Origin: Patescibacteria group bacterium
GTDB taxonomy: Bacteria > Patescibacteriota > Microgenomatia > Daviesbacterales > UBA10151
Direction of reading: 5' to 3'
Length of the DNA: 50,095 nt
Assembly: GCA_038064895.1 (NCBI GenBank)
Contig: JBBTSA010000005.1
Location: 1 to 50,095 of the forward strand
Shown: positions 2,691-35,481 of the stretch, piece after piece
Layout: each line of letters begins with the position of its first letter
Position numbering within the stretch: the first letter of the stretch is position 1
Translations under genes and position numbers: made by a program
Notes under the pieces: generated by a model
The model's database searches: none
Seen by the model: only the letters and a program-made list of their open reading frames with translations
Told to the model about the DNA's origin: nothing

Positions 2691-3518
2691 TCAAGTAGGC
2701 AGAAAATAAATGTCCTTATGATACCTTTCATCCGTAAATTGAAACTCACCCCTTCCATCTAGAATAGCCTGATAAGCAATACAGTCACATTTTCCTTTTT
2801 CATTACATACCCAACTCTTGGTTACAATTGCCCCCTTAACCTCTTTTGCCTTTTCTGTAAGCCACTCTAGTCTAGGCTCAAGTGCATCCAAAACAATCTC
2901 TCTTGGTGCATCGTCCCTATCCAAATACCAGAAGCTTGCAGCAGATACACTTTTCCCAAAATTAGCTTCTGCTAAAATTGCATAAATATAAAGCTGCAAA
3001 GGATCTTTTTCATCATTTACTCCTGTTTTAAAATCGCAAACATGCAAAGTTCCGTCCTGCCTTTCTCCTATAAAATCAAAATTCCCCATAAGTATCACAT
3101 CTTCAAAAAGATTAAGTTTTGGAAAATCTATTTTGTGGGTAATTTTTTCAAGCCTTTTTGCATTTTTAAAAAAATTATCAAGCATTTTTATGCCTCTTTT
3201 CCCAAATACAGCTTCATCTTCTCTTGTGGCAAAACCTCCGCGCTTTCCAGAGTATTTAAGCCAAAAATTCCTGAATTTTTTTTCAAGCTGATCATAAGTT
3301 ATTTGTCCATCCATCTCTATGTACCACTTGACACTGTCATGAACAGTTGAACCTAAAGAAAGATAAGGGGATGCAACCTGGATCCTATTACCTGTTTTTT
3401 TATCCCTATAAAGATTTTTAAAATAATAAGTCCTAGGACATTTTAAAAAATCAGATAAAGATGTATAGGAAATAAAAATAGGATTTTTAATATAATCAGT
3501 TTTAGATTTAGTAATCAT
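2691..3518 (-). CDS. PD-(D/E)XK nuclease, RecB/AddB-like
   Basis: ISYTSLSDFLKCPRTYY, GSTVH, GNFD...VCDFKTG, QLYIYA; start 3518 gives an ATGA overlap with the Fic stop. Confidence 0.85.
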   Translation of the reverse strand: MITKSKTDYIKNPIFISYTSLSDFLKCPRTYYFKNLYRDKKTGNRIQVASPYLSLGSTVHDSVKWYIEMDGQITYDQLEKKFRNFWLKYSGKRGGFATREDEAVFGKRGIKMLDNFFKNAKRLEKITHKIDFPKLNLFEDVILMGNFDFIGERQDGTLHVCDFKTGVNDEKDPLQLYIYAILAEANFGKSVSAASFWYLDRDDAPREIVLDALEPRLEWLTEKAKEVKGAIVTKSWVCNEKGKCDCIAYQAILDGRGEFQFTDERYHKDIYFLPT

Positions 3519-4387
3519 TTGATCCCTATACTCCAAACTCCTTTTTCTCTAAAGGCTGGGATCGTCTGACGTTTGGCTGCATTTAAAACTGCTGAAGGAC
3601 TCATATTGGATTTTCTAGCATATTCCATAAGTTCTATAACATCCATACCTTTAAGATAAGCTATTCTTTTGTGTAAAGCTTCTAAGAGGGCTAAAGTAAC
3701 TATACGTTCCATTATTTTGGTATTTTTGCTATCACGGTATGCAACAAAACCACGGTAATAATTTTTCTGTTCTTTATGCCGGATGATAATACCCGGAAAT
3801 CCCAAGCTGTACAATTGGTAGTTTATCAATACACGTCCTATTCTACCGTTACCATCAAGAAATGGATGAATATTCTCAAAATCAAGATGGAATTTGGCAA
3901 TTTTATCGGTAAAGTAGAGCCTAAGATCAGATGAGAATTCAATTAAAATATCTTCAATCCTCCTTTCAATATGCTCCGGAGGCAAAGCTATATGAGTACC
4001 GATTCGGACATACTCATTTTTTTTTCTAAACCTTCCGGCAATACTTTCATCAATATTACCTAAAAACATCTGGTGATAGAGTAAGACTTTTTCTTTTGAT
4101 AAATCTTCTTTCTGCAATTTTCGTATATATTCCATCACCCTAGCTAAATTCTTTGCCTCAAAAACTTCTCTTAAAGAAAGATTGCCTGATAATTCCATCT
4201 CAAGAAGAATTTTTTCAGTTTCTTTCAAGGTTAGGGTTGAATTTTCTATAGCATTTGAGTTATAAACACTTTCCGGAACTTCTGCTTCATCTATTATCTT
4301 AAGCAGGGACTCCTTACCCGATTTTAGACGGTCAAACTCGCTTTTAAGTCTTTCAATTCTATTTTTAATTGGAAGAGGGGTTGCCAT
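3515..4387 (-). CDS. Fic-domain protein with C-terminal HTH-like tail
   Basis: HPFLDGNGRIGR catalytic motif and SNAIEN inhibitory-helix-like motif; start moved to ATG 4387 behind the promoter. Confidence 0.93.
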   Translation of the reverse strand: MATPLPIKNRIERLKSEFDRLKSGKESLLKIIDEAEVPESVYNSNAIENSTLTLKETEKILLEMELSGNLSLREVFEAKNLARVMEYIRKLQKEDLSKEKVLLYHQMFLGNIDESIAGRFRKKNEYVRIGTHIALPPEHIERRIEDILIEFSSDLRLYFTDKIAKFHLDFENIHPFLDGNGRIGRVLINYQLYSLGFPGIIIRHKEQKNYYRGFVAYRDSKNTKIMERIVTLALLEALHKRIAYLKGMDVIELMEYARKSNMSPSAVLNAAKRQTIPAFREKGVWSIGIK

Positions 4388-4394
4388 AGAATTT

Positions 4395-4463
4395 ATTATA
4401 TCAAATTCACTTACTTTTGTCAATTTAGCGTGAATTTATCCCGAAAGTGATCTAAATTCACGT
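4395..4463 (-). promoter_or_regulatory. Fic promoter with three ATTCAC(G) operator-like boxes
   Basis: TTGACA(4423-4418)-N17-TATAAT(4400-4395); attcac/gtgaat boxes at 4405, 4430 and 4456. Confidence 0.75.
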
Positions 4464-4479
4464 ATGCTACAATACAACA

Positions 4480-5553
4480 ATGGTTATTTTAGGTATAGAA
4501 ACTTCCTGTGATGAAACTGGGGCAGCTGTTTTGTCCTTCGACTCCGCTCAGGATAATAAGAACAAAAAAGGTATAAGGATTCTTTCCAACATAGTTGCCT
4601 CATCAGCTTCTATTCAGGCCAAATACGGAGGAGTGATTCCAGAACAAGCAGCTAGAGAACAGATTAAGGCAATAATTCCTGTAATACAGGAAACACTTCG
4701 ACAAGCTCAGTGCAGTCCTGAAGGACTGGCTGCTATAGCGGTAACGTATGGACCAGGATTAATTGGATCACTTTTAGTAGGAGTTGAAACAGCAAAAACT
4801 TTGGCCACGGTCTGGAACAAGCCACTTATTCCTGTAAACCATCTTATTGGTCATTTTTATGCAAACTTTATCCAAGCAGAACACCTCCGAGGTGTGCGTA
4901 AGGTGACAGCTAAAATTCACCTCGGAGGTGAAGCGCCATCTTTCCCATGTATAGGTTTACTAGTCTCAGGTGGCCATACAGATTTGGTGCTATTCACAGA
5001 TCATGGAAAGTATAAATATTTAGGTGGAACAAGAGATGATGCTGCTGGGGAATGTTTTGATAAATGTGCAAGGCTTTTGGGCCTTCCATATCCGGGTGGA
5101 CCTGAAATTTCCAAATTAGCCTTAAAAGGTGATCCAAAGGCTTTTGATCTACCAAGACCCATGATAGATTCAAAAAACTTTGACTTTTCTTTTTCCGGCC
5201 TGAAAACTGCTGTAGCCAAACTCACCTCCGAGGAGTCAAAGCCCACCTCGGAGGTGTTGCCTGGTTTAGCTGCATCCATTGAAGCTGCTATTGTTGATGT
5301 TCTAGTCTCAAAAACTATCAGAGCAGCCCAAGTCTACAAGGTAAAACAAATTATGATCGCAGGCGGTGTAGCTGCCAACAGGAGGTTAGTTCACAGGTTA
5401 CAGGTTACAGTAGGTAGATTGAAAATTAAACTTCATGTCCCCCCGCCAGAGCTCTGTACTGATAATGGTGCCATGATAGCAGCCGCAGGATTCTTTACTA
5501 GTCCCACCAAAGATCCTCTAACCTTACAAGCAGACCCAAACCTTGCGCTCTAA
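4480..5553 (+). CDS. tsaD: tRNA N6-adenosine threonylcarbamoyltransferase
   Basis: ILGIETSCDET, HLIGH, SGGHT, DDAAGE.FDK, FSFSGLKT, CTDNGAMIA. Confidence 0.98.
   Translation: MVILGIETSCDETGAAVLSFDSAQDNKNKKGIRILSNIVASSASIQAKYGGVIPEQAAREQIKAIIPVIQETLRQAQCSPEGLAAIAVTYGPGLIGSLLVGVETAKTLATVWNKPLIPVNHLIGHFYANFIQAEHLRGVRKVTAKIHLGGEAPSFPCIGLLVSGGHTDLVLFTDHGKYKYLGGTRDDAAGECFDKCARLLGLPYPGGPEISKLALKGDPKAFDLPRPMIDSKNFDFSFSGLKTAVAKLTSEESKPTSEVLPGLAASIEAAIVDVLVSKTIRAAQVYKVKQIMIAGGVAANRRLVHRLQVTVGRLKIKLHVPPPELCTDNGAMIAAAGFFTSPTKDPLTLQADPNLAL
4531..4556 (+). repeat. Palindromic element (cttcgactccgctcag family), in frame in tsaD
   Basis: ttgtccttcgactccgctcaggataa = LSFDSAQDN; relatives at 4694, 29508, 29561. 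Confidence 0.8.
4694..4712 (+). repeat. Palindromic element, in frame in tsaD
   Basis: cacttcgacaagctcagtg = TLRQAQC. Confidence 0.75.
4881..4932. repeat. Inverted pair of CACCTCCGAGGTG palindromes in tsaD
   Basis: acacctccgaggtgt ... ttcacctcggaggtgaa. Confidence 0.85.
5223..5256. repeat. Second inverted pair of CACCTCCGAGG palindromes in tsaD
   Basis: cacctccgaggag ... cacctcggaggtg, in a different reading frame from the first pair. Confidence 0.85.
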
Positions 5554-5578: not shown

Positions 5579-7783
5579 ATGGATAAAGTATATGACCAAA
5601 AAGAGGTTGAGGGAAAATGGTATAAATTCTGGGAAGAAAATGGGTATTTTAAGGCCGATCCAGAATCTTCTAAAAAACCCTACGGCCTTTTAATGCCTCC
5701 GCCAAATGTTACAGGTGAACTTCATCTAGGCCATGCTATGGAGCATTCAATCATGGATGCTATTGCCAGATTTAAGAGAATGCAAGGATATGATGTCTTA
5801 CTTTTACCAGGAGTTGACCATGCAGGGATTCAGTTTGAAGGAACTTTAAATAAAATTTTAGAAAAAGAGGGAATCTCCAGAGTGAAACTTGGGAGAGATG
5901 CTTGGCTAAAACGTGCCTGGAAATTTAAAGATGAGGTTTATAAATCCGTATCTGCTACATGGAGAACCATGGGTTTATCAGCTGACTGGTCAAGAGAAGT
6001 TTTTACACTTGATCCTAAGGTTGCCGAAGCAGTCTTATATGAATTTCAAACATTTTTTGATCAAGATCTGCTTTATAAGGGTGCTTATATAGTTCAATGG
6101 TGCCCAAAAGATAGAACAGCCATAGAAGATGTAGAAATGGAATATGAAGAGCGAAAAGAAAAGTTTTATTACATTAATTACCCATTTGCTGATGATTCAA
6201 AAAAGTTTATAACAATAGCAACTGTTAGGCCGGAAACTATGTTTTCAGATGTTGCAGTAGCTGTTAATCCAAAGGATAAAAGATACAAGAGCCTAATTGG
6301 CAAAAAAGTTATTGTTCCGCTTATTAACCGCGAGGTCCCAATAATTGGGGATTCCTCAATTGATATGAAACTTGGAAGCGGAGCGTTAAAAGTTGATCCT
6401 CCACATTCATTAATTGATTATGAAATTGGCAAGAAAAATAACCTGCAAATTATTCCTGTTATAGGAAAAGACGGCAGGCTAAATGAAAATGCAGGTAAAT
6501 TTGCAGGTCAAAATGCACAGGAAGTTAGAAAAATCATAACTTCCGAACTGGAAAAACAAGGCCTCATGGCTAAAGTTTTGGATATAATCCATGCTGTTCC
6601 TGTTTGTGAAAGATGTAAAGCAACTATTGAACCTCTTATTTCCGAGGAGTGGTTTGTTAAGATAAAACCTTTGGCAGACAAGGCTTTAAAAAAGATTAAT
6701 GAGATCAATTTTGTACCTAAGAATTACCAGAAAATTTTATCTGTCTGGATGGAGGAAATTCACGATTGGTGCATCTCAAGACCTCTTTGGTGGGGATACA
6801 GAATTCCTGTTTGGTATTGCCAAAAGTGTAATCCAAACCATGAGGTTGAAAAAAACAAGGATATGGTTATTTCCATGGAAAAACCTGGCAAAAATTGTCA
6901 GACATGTAGGGAGAAACACTGGGTTCAAGAAGAGGCTTTACTTGATACCTGGTTTTCATCAGGCCTTTGGCCTTTAGGCACTTTAGGCTGGCCCGCTTCG
7001 CGAGGCGAGCCGGATAAGTCAAAAGAATTTGAAAAATATTTCCCTTGGGATTTTGAAACCTCAGCAGGTGAAATAAAATTCCTCTGGATTGCCAGAATGA
7101 TTATGCTTTCTGTTTGGTTTACAGATAAAATCCCATTTAAAAATCAGTTTTTCCATGGAATGTTACGAGATCTAAAAGGAAGAAAGTTTTCCAAATCTTT
7201 GGGCAATGGTATTGATCCTAATAAGTTAAGGCAAGATTGGGGCATTGATGCTACTAGAATGGCTCTTTATACCTATTCTGCCCCGGGCAGAGATGGTAGA
7301 GTTTCAAAACAGACAATGGATGAACGGGCTAAAAACTTTAGAAATTTTTCTACAAAGCTTAAAAATATAGCCAGGTTTATTGTGGACTTGGCTCCGGCAG
7401 AGATTGCTTCGTCGAAGACTCCTCGCAATGACGTCATTGCGACCCCGGACTTGATCCGGGGGAAGCAATCTCAAAATAAAGATGATAAGGAAATTGTAGA
7501 AAAACTTGACAGGGTAATAAGTGTTGTTACTAGGAACATTGATAGTTTCCAGCTTCATTTGGCCTCAGAAGCCTTATATGAATTTATATGGCATGAGTTT
7601 GCGGATAAATATATAGAGGCAACTAAAAATAGAAGGACTGAAGCTCAACCTGTTTTGGAATATGTTTTCAGAACCAGTCTGGAACTGCTTCATCCTTTTA
7701 TGCCTTTCATAACTGAGGAATTATGGCAAAAGTTACCTCACGAGGGGAAGTCTATAATGGTTTCAAAATGGCCAAAAATTTAA
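5579..7783 (+). CDS. valS: Valine--tRNA ligase (short form)
   Basis: PPPNVTGELHLGH, DWCISR.LWWG, LDTWFSS, KFSKSLGN, LHPFMPFITEELW. Confidence 0.97.
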   Translation: MDKVYDQKEVEGKWYKFWEENGYFKADPESSKKPYGLLMPPPNVTGELHLGHAMEHSIMDAIARFKRMQGYDVLLLPGVDHAGIQFEGTLNKILEKEGISRVKLGRDAWLKRAWKFKDEVYKSVSATWRTMGLSADWSREVFTLDPKVAEAVLYEFQTFFDQDLLYKGAYIVQWCPKDRTAIEDVEMEYEERKEKFYYINYPFADDSKKFITIATVRPETMFSDVAVAVNPKDKRYKSLIGKKVIVPLINREVPIIGDSSIDMKLGSGALKVDPPHSLIDYEIGKKNNLQIIPVIGKDGRLNENAGKFAGQNAQEVRKIITSELEKQGLMAKVLDIIHAVPVCERCKATIEPLISEEWFVKIKPLADKALKKINEINFVPKNYQKILSVWMEEIHDWCISRPLWWGYRIPVWYCQKCNPNHEVEKNKDMVISMEKPGKNCQTCREKHWVQEEALLDTWFSSGLWPLGTLGWPASRGEPDKSKEFEKYFPWDFETSAGEIKFLWIARMIMLSVWFTDKIPFKNQFFHGMLRDLKGRKFSKSLGNGIDPNKLRQDWGIDATRMALYTYSAPGRDGRVSKQTMDERAKNFRNFSTKLKNIARFIVDLAPAEIASSKTPRNDVIATPDLIRGKQSQNKDDKEIVEKLDRVISVVTRNIDSFQLHLASEALYEFIWHEFADKYIEATKNRRTEAQPVLEYVFRTSLELLHPFMPFITEELWQKLPHEGKSIMVSKWPKI
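6988..7013 (+). repeat. GC-rich palindromic element, in frame in valS
   Basis: ctggcccgcttcgcgaggcgagccgg = WPASRGEP; related to 28803-28842. Confidence 0.8.
7400..7472. repeat. 73-bp composite palindrome, in frame in valS
   Basis: Terminal IR gagattgcttc/gaagcaatctc with inner tcgcaatgacgtcattgcga and ccccggacttgatccgggg. Confidence 0.92.
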
Positions 7784-29507: not shown

Positions 29508-29580
29508 CAGTTCGACTTCGCTCACTGTAAACTTGTGGACAAAAGATCAGATTTTGAAAATCCTGAGCATAGTCGAAGGA
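29508..29580. repeat. Inverted pair of ttcgac..gctca palindromic elements
   Basis: cagttcgacttcgctcactg and tcctgagcatagtcgaagga. Confidence 0.8.
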
Positions 29581-29645: not shown

Positions 29646-32600
29646 ATGGCACAAGAACGTATGGCAGAAGAAACATCAGGACCAGGTACAGAAGGACCCC
29701 CTCAGGCAGGGGGAAGTCCTGATATCCAAAGATCAATAGCAGGCCCGGATGCTCCCAGCTGGGGTGGAGCAGATGCAAATCCCCCGGCATGGGGTGGCCA
29801 AAACCCTTTGGAGACCCTTAGAGGCCAGCTTACAACTCCAGAAACTGAATTAAATCCTGAAGGGAAAAAGCCAGAAGAGGTAGTATCCATCATGCAAAGG
29901 ATAGATACAGAGGAAGCTGCTACAAGAGAAACTCATAAAGAAGTTTTCCAGCAGGCTTGTGATGTTTTGAAGACTTATGCTCACAAAAGTAAGCTTCTTG
30001 ATTTAGACACAAAGACTATAAACCTGGAAAGAGAGCTTGATAGAGCTGATCAAGCTGTAATTGATCAAGTTGATACTCAAAACCCACGGCAAGGTATGGT
30101 TCTACAAGGACTACTAGATAGTCTTGATTCTACGGAGGAGGAATTAACTAGAGTAGTCAATACCTTAGGGGATGATCAATATGAAGGATTATTCTCAAAA
30201 GAAGGTTGGGAGCAGTTCAAGAAAACAAGAGAAAAACTTCAACAGGAAAAAACTAATTTTGAGCAACAGATAACCGGTATGACACCTCAGAACTTTCTGG
30301 CCGAGAGAAATCAGAAAAAAAATGCCATAAGGCAGGCAAAAGAAAAAGCGGTGGAAGACGACAGGGTAGATAGAGAGAAAGCCATAAAAGAGCAGCGCGC
30401 AGAACCTGAAAAATGGGAGTTAGAGTTAGAACAATTGCTCCTTCAAGATGCTGAACCTACCATAACACAACCTGGTAAAACAACTTTTGCCGAGCAATTG
30501 GAGTTTTTCCGAGAACAGCAAAAATTGAAGGATACAGGAGATCCTAATTTTCAACAACAAGATTTGGATCAAGCAAGAGAAGGCTTAAGCTGGTATTTGC
30601 ATCAGGCAAGGAGAGTGGGAGTTTTTGATGATTTAGAGGAGAGGCTGGATCATAAATATCAGGAATGGGCTAGCAGTTTATTGCCTCATCGCGAGATGAG
30701 CCAACTGGATATGCTGACAGATTCACCGGGCCGTTTAACCCAGAAAACTTTTGCCGAGATAGAAGATGAAATTATTGAATATTTTAGCGCTCTTTTGGAC
30801 AATAATAAATCTCAATATGTGGAGCATTCCGCACGCTGGGATCTTCTTCAAAGAAGAGGGCTAACATCTGCAGCAAGACAAGCCTTGCAAGGAATTAGAG
30901 GGGAATTTATCAAAAGGGCTCAAGCCCAAATTGAGGATTCTCTTTTAAACTTTGACCTGCCGGATAGGATTTCCGGTGAGTGGAATGTTCACAGAATAGA
31001 AAGAGTGATTACAGAGAGAAGAGAAAGACAGGCCTTAGAGGCAGGAATTGAACCTTGGTTTAGAGAAGAATCTTATTACAGGATCAAATTACTTGGAAAT
31101 ACCAGACAAGAAATAGAATTGGGCGCGGATCAGGCGGCTGAAAACATTACCCAAAGCGCTACCACCTTTGATATTAGCGCTATCCAGCAAAGAATGGAGA
31201 TGTTGCTAAAAGCTTTAAGAGAAAAATCAACTGACTTACAAAGAAGTGAAAGAATTTCCAAAAAAGATGCGGATGATTTAATTGTACAGATGGAGGATTC
31301 AGTCACTAATAAAATTGATTTTTTCATATTAAACTGGGCTGGGGAGAATCTACAAATGGATTTATTCAATTCATTTTTAGAACAAAGGATGCGTATTCGG
31401 GGAGTTGAAAAATTAAGACAGATGCCTTCTATGAATGACGGTCTAGTGGGTATAGCATTATCACTGCTGCTTTCGGACCAGTACAGACTCTATTACAGAC
31501 CTCAAGGCTTTAAAGGTCAATTGTTTGATGATGATACAACCCATAAATATCTTCGCGACTTACTGGAAGAGCAGCTTATAAGCAAATTAATGGAGTATGA
31601 GTTAAAAGGAGGAATTGATGAAAAAACAGGTAGAGAGGATGAAGAAAGAACCCGCGCTAGAGCAAATTTAACCACAGTGACTACAGCGGATCAATTTTTA
31701 TCAAATTTTGAGCGTAGAGAGGCTCCTGATATAAGATTAAAGCGAATCAGCGAAGATTATAAACAAGACTCTAAGGAAGTAGAGGGAAAAAAGGAAAACA
31801 ATCAAGCTACTTTTGAAGACCTAGCAAGGCTGAGAGTAGCACGGAAAGTATTAGCTTCGGAACAAAGCAGATTTCAGGAAGTGAAGAGAAGGGCTACCAG
31901 TGCTTTTGGTATTGCAGCTCAAGTGATGAATATATTTGGTGAAGCAGCGGAGCTTGGATCTCCATCAATTAAAATGGACAACGGTGATTATATAAGAGTA
32001 GATGATGCCGTTTTATTTTATAAATACGTTATCTTGCAGGCTGCTAAGGAGTACGGAGAGCAATACGGCGCAGAGGATAATTTAGCGTTTATCAGGTGGA
32101 GAAGCAGAATGTGGATTGATAGGTGGAAAAACGCCGGATTAAATAGAGCAAATACTGATAATAAGTTTCACATAACTCTAACCAATGGTAGAACAATACC
32201 AATTGAGTTGCAGAGAGGATTTGAAGAAACAGGATTAAGTAAGGAAGAATGGAGCGCTTTTCAGGATGCGGTAAAGAAAATAAGAGAGAGTGGCTATAAT
32301 GCGACAATTAAAATAAAAGTTAGACAGCAAGACGGCACGTATCAGGAAGAGGAGAAAAGGTTTGAAGAAATTATTAAGATGGATAGTCTTAGGCCGGTTA
32401 ATAATAATTTCCTGGCTGATTATAAATCATCCGAAAGCCAGATTAATAACGAGGTGGTATTGGAACAGGTGGCCAAGGGTAAACTGCCAGCCATAAGAAA
32501 TGTACTTAGAAGATTGGGATTAACCGGAAGGCAGGGTATTGAAGGTAATACCACGCAACAAAGAATTGATAATCTGACCCAGATGATTGAGGATTCCCGG

Positions 32601-33663: not shown

Positions 33664-35481
33664 TTATCGAATCCGGACAGGCTGTTGTCTCCTTAATGCT
33701 CCAGCTATACCAGGTTTTCGATAAACATAATATCCCAGCGGATCATTTGGTGCTGGTATAATCTCATATGTATCCCCAAGAGATTGGCCTAAAGGACCGA
33801 GGGCCCTGCCTGTTTGTCCTGGAGCAGCCCCTAATCTTCCGGCATAACCTTGCCCGGCTCTGGTTGATCCAGAAATTTCTTGACCAATCAATTGCCCTGC
33901 TTGACCCATTCTTCCAATTGTTCTGTTTATTATATCAGGAATGGCAGGGGTTGCCAGTAAGGCTCCATAAGCTAATAAAATTCTAATGAAATTTAGATCT
34001 AATCCACCAAAAAGCGGCAGTGTTTGGGGTCCGGCTACTCCTGGGCTTGCAGTAATTCCAAATAATTGCCCTGGTGCAGTATTTGTTCCCCAAAGATAAG
34101 CCACAAAATAGAAAACCGCAAAAACTGCCGGGAAAGCCAAAACATTAGCCAGCATATTTAATATCCAGTTTGTTGCAACCCCTTGTCTCCCTGGGAGTGC
34201 AGCTGCTAAGAATTGGAAAGGAGCGGTTACTGTTAGGAAGATGATACTTAAGAAGCTATTAATCAGACGAAGTAAGAGTTTAAACATGGCATAGATTAAA
34301 ACCGCTATTGCAACAAAATAAATAACAAGACTGAAAGTAAAAGTAGGATTGGCAAAAGCGGGGATTCCTAAGACACTTCCCCCAATAACTTGGCCGGCAA
34401 GCCCTGTTAACATGCCACAAAACGGGGCAATTGCAGCACCGATACCTCCTGCCGGTGCCGTTAAAGTACCTGCCACAGCAGCACAAATTCCTGCACCACC
34501 AAGGCTCCCAATAGGTCCTCCTATTGAAGCTCCTGTTTGGAAACCTATTACTCCAGCCAGAAGCCTAATCCAAAACTGAACCCCGCCATCTAAACTATTA
34601 AAAACCGAACCTAAAGCACCCGATATATCTCCAACACTAAGCATACCCACAAATTTACTAAAAATTGTTCCCACATTATCTCCAGCAATATCTTGAGCAA
34701 GTTTTGGAGGCGAGCCTGTTTGTGCAGCACTGAAATAATGCCCCACAACGTTAACTCCCAAAAATGCAGTGTCAGTAAGTAAGGCTGCAAAGAAGTAGGA
34801 GAAAGTTATTAGGATAAGGCCAATTACAAGGCCTGGTAAGGCTGCTTGGGCTGTAATTACTGTTTGGGGATTTATTCTTTGCCTAAACATTACCATAAAG
34901 CCAATGATTACAAAAATTATTATCATAATTACATAAGAAATGTTTCTTGAAACCTGCCAGAGTTTTAAAATAGGACTTAAAACCTGGGCTCCTGAACCAA
35001 CAACTTGGGCATGAGCTGGTTTTACAATTCCTAAGCCTTCTCCAACTGATGCCAGATAATCTATGGTTCTAACCGGAGGATTCATATAAAGACCTGCTAT
35101 AAGACCTGTTGTTGCCCCTAAAAGGCCTCCGGATAAGTTAGCTGATGAAAGTATTGGTACTCCCTGAATTGCTCCCTGGGCATTTTGGGTAATCTGATAA
35201 GTAAGACATGGCTGGCCAATTATGGATGAACCAATAGAGAGACAGGAGAAAGTATGGAATAGGTTATGAACTAAAAGATCAGTATAGATGGGGGAGGTAG
35301 GAGGAATTGAGGATGGAAGCTGGAAACTGGAAGCTGGATTTTGAAGCTGGAGGGTAGAAGACGGAGTGGAGGATTGGGCATGGACAGGACTAGGTAAACT
35401 CAAAACGCAAATGTTAAATGTCAAAACTATAACTAAAAATCTCAAAACTTTTGAGATTTGAAATTTGAGATTTTGCAGCAT
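33664..35481 (-). CDS. VirB6/TrbL-like polytopic membrane protein
   Basis: Multiple TMs; WQVSRNISY...GFMVMFR...QT; TVTAPF..L..ALPG...W...LA..LAFP. Confidence 0.7.
   Translation of the reverse strand: MLQNLKFQISKVLRFLVIVLTFNICVLSLPSPVHAQSSTPSSTLQLQNPASSFQLPSSIPPTSPIYTDLLVHNLFHTFSCLSIGSSIIGQPCLTYQITQNAQGAIQGVPILSSANLSGGLLGATTGLIAGLYMNPPVRTIDYLASVGEGLGIVKPAHAQVVGSGAQVLSPILKLWQVSRNISYVIMIIIFVIIGFMVMFRQRINPQTVITAQAALPGLVIGLILITFSYFFAALLTDTAFLGVNVVGHYFSAAQTGSPPKLAQDIAGDNVGTIFSKFVGMLSVGDISGALGSVFNSLDGGVQFWIRLLAGVIGFQTGASIGGPIGSLGGAGICAAVAGTLTAPAGGIGAAIAPFCGMLTGLAGQVIGGSVLGIPAFANPTFTFSLVIYFVAIAVLIYAMFKLLLRLINSFLSIIFLTVTAPFQFLAAALPGRQGVATNWILNMLANVLAFPAVFAVFYFVAYLWGTNTAPGQLFGITASPGVAGPQTLPLFGGLDLNFIRILLAYGALLATPAIPDIINRTIGRMGQAGQLIGQEISGSTRAGQGYAGRLGAAPGQTGRALGPLGQSLGDTYEIIPAPNDPLGYYVYRKPGIAGALRRQQPVRIR

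Follow-up and report, generated by a model that had tools for sequence, protein, structure and literature searches.

The tsaD gene of a Patescibacteria group bacterium (GTDB lineage Microgenomatia; Daviesbacterales; UBA10151; assembly GCA_038064895.1) has probably been colonised at tolerant loops by short mobile DNA hairpins of two repeat families, here called M1 and M2. The gene lies on contig JBBTSA010000005.1 (C5 in our numbering), in a stretch of 50,095 nt that was analysed at its full length and is referred to as the window. The genome as a whole comprises 1,007,788 bases in 41 contigs with 37% GC and is rated 97% complete. The gene is present in a single copy (one match in a genome-wide search), and the metal-binding residues H121/H125 and D328 of its product are invariant in 16 aligned relatives. 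A first-pass annotation of the same sequence had proposed that tsaD carries five in-frame micro-insertions from three repeat families. All five features exist (Table 1), but only those at 4534-4554 and at about 4882-4930 add length to the protein. Likewise, M1 and M2 are palindromic, over-represented and dispersed, whereas the supposed third family, a heptamer run, is a tandem array and not a palindrome family. That annotation is largely right in outline; it overstated the number of insertions and the 'active' character of the invasion.

Table 1. The tsaD gene and the repeat segments within it (positions are those of the window).
Feature	Position	Strand	Description
tsaD coding sequence	4480..5553	+	357 aa, intact, Pfam PF00814, E 3.5e-89
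M2 unit 1 (21-nt in-frame insertion)	4534..4554	+	SFDSAQD (residues 19-25), TCC-TTCGAC-TCC-GCTCA-GGA
M2 unit 2 (complete)	4694..4712	+	CAC-TTCGAC-AA-GCTCA-GTG, translated LRQAQ, no length change
M1 doublet 1	4882..4930	.	CACCTCCGAGGTG-N23-CACCTCGGAGGTG, REPIN-like 49-nt hairpin
M1 doublet 2	5223..5256	.	CACCTCCGAGGAG-N8-CACCTCGGAGGTG, translated TSEESKPTSEV
ACAGGTT tandem heptamer (x2.6)	5393..5410	+	translated HRLQVTV (residues 305-311), not an insertion
Peptide segments named for the inserts			HLRGVRKVTAKIHLGG, SFDSAQD

Two of the five tsaD segments are insertions

The TsaD genes of 19 related genomes were aligned with that of our own genome (20 genes), and the DNA was examined site by site. 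In addition, we used HMMER alignments to the solved TsaD proteins of Escherichia coli and Salmonella and an AlphaFold2 model built from 16 sequences, with a mean predicted local distance difference test score (pLDDT) of 83.8. Only the 21 nt at 4534-4554 (7 aa) and 17 aa around 4882-4930 lengthen TsaD when compared with the 19 relatives and with E. coli/Salmonella. The 21-nt insertion is missing from 16 of the 20 aligned genes. The insertion at doublet 1 measures 51 nt (17 aa, EHLRGVRKVTAKIHLGG), including an AA found on both sides, and its site is empty in seven of the 20 genes and in E. coli. In the AlphaFold2 model, internal segments with a pLDDT below 50 occur only at residues 23-28 and 137-149, which correspond to these two insertions.

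The other three segments gave a different picture. LRQAQ, encoded by the second M2 unit, aligns without gaps to the relatives and to E. coli and lies at the end of a helix (residue block 71-80, mean pLDDT 95). HRLQVTV, encoded by the heptamer run, also aligns gap-free and is part of a helix (residue block mean pLDDT 94). Doublet 2 is found in a length-variable loop, modelled as a coil (residues 252-258) between two helices, which is one residue off the length of the E. coli loop and five residues longer than that of the shortest relative. Two of the five segments are true micro-insertions, one (doublet 2) is ambiguous, and two are not insertions. The proposal that the repeats occupy tolerant loops holds for the two copies that are indels in low-confidence loops, but not for LRQAQ and HRLQVTV.

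When the same sites were inspected in the relatives, repeats were found at several of them. M1 arms are found at the tsaD M1 sites in L001 (our own genome), L003 and L013. At the site of doublet 2, L013 has the doublet with its spacer inverted and L003 has a longer version. The tsaD doublet of L003 has the arms CACCTTTCAGGAG/CACCTGAAAGGTG and an M2-like unit nested within the spacer. A nearly identical 34-nt copy of doublet 2 lies at C35:639-672. At the LRQAQ site, L006 carries an M2 unit with one mismatch, and L013, L014, L017 and L019 have insertions. The first M2 site holds a 30-nt insert in L020, in which the M2 unit is translated in another frame (PSTSSG). In other relatives the same tsaD loops harbour arrays of heptamers, palindromes of other types, and inserts that reach about 37 aa.

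M1 is a dispersed palindrome that usually occurs as inverted doublets

Within the window, M1 (CACCTCSGAGGTG) was found at 4882, 4918, 5223 (one mismatch) and 5244, all in tsaD. These four matches compare with 0.02 expected, and none of 100 shuffles reached this number. The two pairs in tsaD are inverted repeats, complementary at 13/13 and 11/11 positions, with spacers of 23 nt and 8 nt. Both doublets fold as DNA hairpins, with z values of -4.9 and -4.7; none of 200 shuffled sequences folded equally well. The genome-wide count that the first-pass annotation had proposed as a check gave 27 exact copies of M1 per 1.008 Mb and about 50 copies of M2 at one mismatch. M1 is the top 13-mer among those with a GC content of at least 0.4. 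The family is usually seen as two inverted copies 8-26 nt apart; with two mismatches allowed, 19 adjacent pairs were obtained, a few of them with a common arm, and a spacer of 23 nt is seen most often. Either the C-centred or the G-centred arm may come first, and variant doublets stay complementary through changes on both arms, for example CACCTTCCAGGTG/CACCTGGAAGGTG.

All pairs are located inside long open reading frames (ORFs), the shortest host being 266 aa, and on either strand of the host gene. The 27 exact copies all lie in ORFs of at least 100 aa. An enrichment of M1 in coding sequence was nevertheless rejected, because such ORFs make up 93% of the genome; M1 has no preference for coding sequence, only no alternative. 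Reading frames are used unevenly: 15 of the 27 exact units are read in the frame HL(R/G)G and 12 in the frame TSEV, and none is read in the frame PPR/PRR, although this frame is open in many copies. This usage is as expected of selection acting after insertion at the DNA level, and a peptide motif is excluded. Two earlier proposals are supported here, namely that the same DNA motif is read in different frames (HLRG..HLGG and TSEE..TSEV for M1, FDSAQ and LRQAQ for M2) and that selection on the palindromic motifs acts on DNA or RNA and not on peptide, given both orientations and two frames.

Housekeeping Pfam families were assigned to 13 of the 14 M1 host ORFs. The hosts are UvrD, a DinB-type polymerase (two doublets), the CCA-adding enzyme, L3, a PurL-like protein (five pairs), a CoA ligase subunit, a release factor, an ATP synthase subunit (AtpD), UvrA, an M1 peptidase, PheT, DnaK and an amidase. 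The DinB gene (C8 10181-11479) reads the strand opposite to the tsaD-like one. In atpD, a 57-nt M1 insert is present solely in our genome among 14 aligned, and in one relative this site is occupied by a heptamer insert. Among the hosts of M1 and M2 together (L068, L069, L077, L085), DNA repair genes appear prominent, with UvrD, UvrA, the DinB-type polymerase with its two doublets and an ATP-dependent DNA ligase with two M2 units.

The exact M1 13-mer was found in 32 of 61 related genomes and a reversed control pattern in none of the 61; our genome has the highest count of all. A search for the doublet pattern in public genomes returned at least 118 stretches, mostly from the Microgenomates group of the candidate phyla radiation (CPR), including Daviesbacteria, Curtissbacteria, Roizmanbacteria, Beckwithbacteria, Woesebacteria, Levybacteria and others. 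Some of the records (L150-L152, L157, L160 and others), one of them an 804-kb contig, are titled 'uncultured Gammaproteobacteria' or 'Pseudomonadales' bacterium; these are the titles as deposited. We also weighed whether M1 might serve as a DNA uptake signal and discarded the idea, as there are just 27 copies per Mb and the repeat flanks transposase genes.

M1 flanks RAYT-like transposase genes in related genomes

The first-pass annotation had suggested looking for a gene of a REP-associated tyrosine transposase (RAYT), that is, an enzyme associated with repetitive extragenic palindromes (REPs), flanked by the same motifs. Such genes, with M1 on both sides, were found in relatives. RAYT-like homologues are present in 45 of the 61 related genomes. 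By comparing their positions with those of M1, five loci were located and retrieved. Four of these (L053-L056; G033:C12, G001:C11, G001:C4 and G033:C9) consist of a RAYT-like gene of 214-238 aa with a single M1 on each side at a distance of about 10-90 nt, and the fifth (L057; G046:C1) has M1 on one side. Because single M1 copies flank RAYT-like genes in relatives, M1 is best compared to a REP unit and its doublets to REPINs, the hairpins formed by two inverted REPs.

A repeat of at least 10 nt is common to both flanks in 27 of 33 non-redundant RAYT-like loci, and in two further loci, L057 and the C26 locus of our own genome, a copy of the flank repeat occurs on one side only. In a tree of the RAYT-like proteins, a clade with TTCCCAC-type repeats separates from a clade mostly with short palindromes of the form xACC-N5-GGTx. 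Genes of one and the same genome are divergent paralogs that share about 42-56% identity, and no two have the same flank repeat.

Our own genome encodes two Y1/HUH transposase-like proteins, which score 41.6 and 31.6 bits with Pfam Y1_Tnp (cut-off 23 bits). Upstream of the first gene (G000:C26:7513-8217, L021), TTCCCACTCGTCAAGTGGGAA is followed by CGTAG, and the second, on C40, has CTACAATCCCGGTTTG on both sides. Both genes are free of M1 and M2 copies within 1.5 kb. When the five M1-flanked RAYT proteins were used as tblastn queries on our genome, the same two genes were recovered and nothing further, whether gene or fragment; M1 does not stand at the end of any contig in the assembly. The C26 gene itself contains an in-frame core copy, CACTCGTCAAGTG, of its own flank repeat (TTCCCAC...GTGGGAA family), which is translated FPLDEWE.

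M2 has a covarying stem, and M2-like units occur upstream of small GIY-YIG genes

The M2 motif is seen in tsaD as TTCGAC-N3-GCTCAG at 4537 and as TTCGAC-N2-GCTCAG at 4697. Genome-wide, 39 copies match TGAGC-N2-4-GTCGAA exactly. The two tsaD units had been described as hairpins. Under standard energy rules neither folds (z -0.4 and +0.4), but their closing stem of 3 bp covaries over the 39 exact copies: the outer positions pair in 38, 38 and 34 of them, using two or three Watson-Crick types at each position (CG/GC; CG/AT/GC; TA/CG). When the pairing partner was slid as a control, the values were 28/12/13 at +1, 0/27/17 at -1 and 15/10/9 at +2. Judged from the sequence, the structured strand would carry tandem G-A mismatches. 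For the first unit this is the minus strand, and its loop (GGA on the structured strand) occurs in no other exact M2 copy of the genome. An inverted M2 pair, one member with a mismatch and the two 37 nt apart, is present at 29511-29577 of the window, just upstream of an ATG at 29647; M2 doublets therefore exist too.

A search for GIY-YIG genes flanked by the same motifs had also been suggested, and small GIY-YIG genes with M2-type units upstream were indeed found. Our genome has 10 GIY-YIG matches, nine of which are small stand-alone ORFs of 79-115 aa (contigs C8, C10, C14, C17 and C18; L058-L066). Using one small GIY-YIG protein as query, 30 loci were collected from our genome and the relatives. 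An M2-like unit is located within 150 nt upstream of the gene in 19 of the 30 loci and within 200 nt downstream in seven, compared with a background of 27 matches in 72.7 kb of the same loci (0.056 per 150 nt). The proteins resemble UPF0213 structures (1zg2, E 2.8e-9). Several of the small GIY-YIG ORFs directly adjoin tRNA genes or tRNA-like fragments.

Mode of insertion and alternatives

In the reading we favour, M1 would be a REP/REPIN-type element, partnered by a RAYT-like HUH tyrosine transposase encoded by the gene that M1 brackets in relatives. By analogy with REP/RAYT and IS200/IS605 systems, such an enzyme would act on the folded single strand by cutting and rejoining it. M2 would be a second hairpin repeat, with a variable stem of 3 bp and the TGAGC-N2-4-GTCGAA core, associated with the small GIY-YIG nucleases. 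As the copies are in frame and have no stop in the frame that is used, translation presumably turns them into additional peptides within loops. Just those copies that keep the frame and add a harmless peptide would survive, which would account for the finding that all are in frame and none is in the Pro-Pro-Arg frame.

Several observations weigh against this reading. No M1-flanked RAYT gene is present in the 97%-complete assembly, the two resident genes being flanked by other repeats; the cognate transposase may lie in the unassembled 3% or have been lost, or its role may be filled by another enzyme. With the NCBIfam RAYT model NF047646, the two resident proteins, which were scored instead of the M1-flanked ones, reached 38.6 and 52.3 bits, below the cut-off of 80 bits. 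RAYT-like genes are multi-copy in some relatives, with up to 13 per genome. The M1-flanked RAYT proteins fall in the xACC-N5-GGTx clade but do not form a single clade. The GTAG tag of classical REPs (GTAG/CTAC within 6 nt) accompanies just one of the 27 M1 copies, and M1 is never extragenic in its own genome. The atpD insert lacks clean boundaries, measuring 57 nt for a core of 49 nt. The link between M2 and the nucleases depends on a permissive pattern and is an association only. Furthermore, none of the 39 M2 copies overlaps the five matches in the genome to the SRM pattern as published in the part of PMC11893778 that describes it. To these is added an observation on the mobility of the copies, which is given below.

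Some of these points would also fit the M1 doublets being MITE-like (miniature inverted-repeat transposable element) deletion derivatives of an autonomous insertion sequence (IS) of the IS200/IS605 type, that is, palindrome-associated transposable elements and not REPINs served by a domesticated single-copy RAYT. The multi-copy state of the Y1 transposase-like genes in some relatives would agree with this, as would the short palindrome that brackets each of these genes in the manner of IS ends, and the proteins passed Pfam Y1_Tnp but not the RAYT model. We nevertheless regard this origin as unlikely, since the copies within a genome are divergent and have different flank repeats, unlike the near-identical copies of an IS.

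Whether the hairpins are moving at present was approached by comparing contigs from four DNA sequencing runs of two studies with the window. The tsaD sequence across doublet 1 is matched exactly by contigs from the runs X3 and X4, which belong to different studies. No contig in the four runs skips an element, and neither transposition nor excision nor polymorphism was seen. Among the sequencing runs listed as containing the sequence, none is an RNA run. A 5- to 8-fold rise in contig depth marks doublet 2, and 5223 and 5256 are the exact points at which many contigs diverge; both are expected for a dispersed repeat. Two joints at doublet 2 that connect opposite strands look like assembly effects at the palindrome, and the contig result is neutral on mobility. 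We also looked for a clean target-site duplication; the insert in tsaD is consistent with a core of 49 nt plus AA, the borders of the 57-nt insert in atpD are unclear, and no rule is claimed.

The 21-nt M2 insertion appears to be old. Nearly identical 21-nt sequences are found at the first tsaD site in L002 and L014, with one or two changes per 21 nt among L001, L002 and L014. In a FastTree phylogeny of TsaD, our genome clusters with L014, L013 and L017 (support 0.94). The insertion is present in our genome (L001), L014 and the more distant L002 and absent from L013 and L017. Its occurrence in two relatives suggests that it was gained long ago and later lost in some lineages, or that conversion took place, and speaks against a recent invasion. 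Taken together with the lack of a cognate RAYT in the assembly and of any contig without the element in the four runs, this does not support the earlier description of the invasion as active.

The conservation of this insertion could also be taken to mean that the hairpins are kept for a function in host mRNA or DNA, such as translation pausing, RNase sites or self-marking against a single-strand nuclease. The codons flanking the insertion diverge more than the insertion itself (between L001 and L002, 6 of 18 differ), complementarity of the arms is preserved by double changes, and repeats occupy the same loops in many relatives. However, the same sites hold unrelated repeats or nothing in different relatives, as with the seven empty doublet 1 sites, and conservation could equally be explained if the mobilising enzyme recognises the sequence or if copies undergo conversion among themselves. 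A host function is therefore rather improbable in our view, and colonisation by mobile hairpins remains the reading that we prefer.

Heptamer arrays are a separate phenomenon

The ACAGGTT run of tsaD is a different phenomenon from the palindromes. It would be unrelated to M1 and M2 and would reflect the readiness of this genome as a whole to form 7-nt arrays, for which replication slippage is the probable mechanism. In the whole genome, Tandem Repeats Finder reported 60 arrays of period 7, compared with four of period 6 and seven of period 8, and a shuffled genome gave three of period 7. Of the 60 arrays, 42 are inside ORFs of at least 100 aa. Three 7-nt units make 21 nt, or 7 residues, and thus keep the frame and give a 7-residue period. 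The tsaD run is identical in L013 and close in L014, and in most relatives the site, inspected by eye, has 7-nt periodic DNA made of other units with no change in length. Further period-7 arrays of the window are at 35314, 35450, 37015, 40191 and 46441.

That the tsaD segments are ordinary lineage-specific protein loops under peptide selection, with the DNA likeness secondary, would suit LRQAQ and HRLQVTV, which sit in confidently folded helices and align at conserved length, but it is very improbable overall, being refuted for M1 and the first M2 copy by the use of the same DNA in two frames and on both strands of real genes (as in the DinB gene) and countered by the M1 13-mers that flank transposase genes outside coding sequence, so that it remains for the heptamer run only.

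Cyanobacteria are known for heptameric tandem repeats of the short tandemly repeated repetitive (STRR) type. An excess of 7-nt arrays is likewise described for bacteria in the portions of PMC4692102 and PMC4679880 that treat such repeats. The arrays in our genome differ from these in that most lie within ORFs and are read through.

A more general possibility, which we advance only tentatively and consider rather doubtful, is that in CPR bacteria of the Microgenomates group the variable loops of essential enzymes are built largely by processes at the DNA level and not by peptide selection. These processes would be RAYT-linked hairpin doublets, GIY-YIG-linked hairpins and 7-nt slippage arrays, the last encoding even parts of folded helices, and they would repeatedly have hit the same few TsaD sites in different genera. 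In that case, a main source of the lineage-specific insertions that are typical of CPR proteins would be DNA that is selfish or prone to slippage. Moreover, a REPIN population could be maintained in a genome that has no cognate transposase of its own, and this at the highest copy number among 61 relatives.

Relation to known repeat systems

REPIN-RAYT systems are well described (Bertels & Rainey 2011, PMC3116915). M1 resembles them as a short palindrome with tens of dispersed copies, mostly in inverted doublets that form a longer hairpin, as well as in the co-evolution of its arms and in the Y1/HUH transposase gene that it brackets in relatives. It differs from them in that the M1 unit is just 13-15 nt long, carries no GTAG tag and has only intragenic copies. 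The transposase-like proteins, at about 215-235 aa, have several paralogs per genome in relatives, the two resident ones fall below the NCBIfam RAYT cut-off, and no cognate gene was found in our own genome. Among the literature matches listed, none linked RAYT with CPR.

Di Nocera et al. (2013, PMC3733652) describe, from several phyla, REPs and REP dimers inside ORFs, which encode 20-30 residues and frequently lie in DNA repair genes. Our genome is alike in this respect, with UvrA, UvrD, DinB and DNA ligase as repair-gene hosts.

In behaviour, the repeats also resemble the Rickettsia palindromic elements (RPEs), in-frame palindromes of housekeeping genes that are translated as an extra surface peptide. 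RPEs were reportedly described by Ogata and colleagues in 2000. They are about 100-150 bp long and known from Rickettsia only; the M1 and M2 units are shorter. We know of no established transposase partner for RPEs. The section of PMC3733652 that treats them alongside intragenic REPs mentions none.

For M2, the closest likeness is to the Ssn GIY-YIG nucleases and their NTS/SRM hairpin repeats, in which, according to the part of PMC11893778 on these repeats, small single-domain GIY-YIG genes accompany a dispersed hairpin repeat with sequence-specific conserved parts. In addition to its lack of overlap with the SRM matches, M2 differs in its mostly upstream position and in proteins that are nearest to UPF0213 structures.

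Our findings do not represent a new kind of element, since in-frame hairpin repeats that are read through are known, as in Rickettsia; the lineage and the types of repeat are new. The REP type is very short, untagged and wholly intragenic, and M1 is linked to RAYT-like genes in relatives, with none such found in its own genome. A second hairpin family is tied to small GIY-YIG genes, and several classes of repeat converge on the same loops. REP/transposase and hairpin/nuclease partnerships are thereby extended to a lineage with almost no intergenic space, in which the inside of genes is consequently the only place left for such elements. The results bear on the origin of extra loops in the proteins of ultra-small bacteria and caution annotators that segments of this kind are repeat DNA, as are the antisense ORFs that run across them. 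In addition, the M1 13-mer with its transposase genes offers a simple test system for the recognition of very short palindromes.

Other features of the window

In the window, Rfam at gathering thresholds detected only a tmRNA and two tRNAs, with no match within tsaD. On the 5' side of tsaD are a Fic/DOC-family gene and a PD-(D/E)XK nuclease-family gene, at 3515-4423 (-) and 2691-3536 (-), which overlap by about 20 nt. In valS (5579-7783, +), a compound palindrome of about 70 nt at 7400-7475 is in frame and translated ..EIASSKTPRNDVIATPDLIRGKQSQ... It is built from the GTCATTGCGAG / GATTGCTTCGTC family, of which CTCGCAATGAC has 20 copies in the genome and is CGTC-tagged in type.

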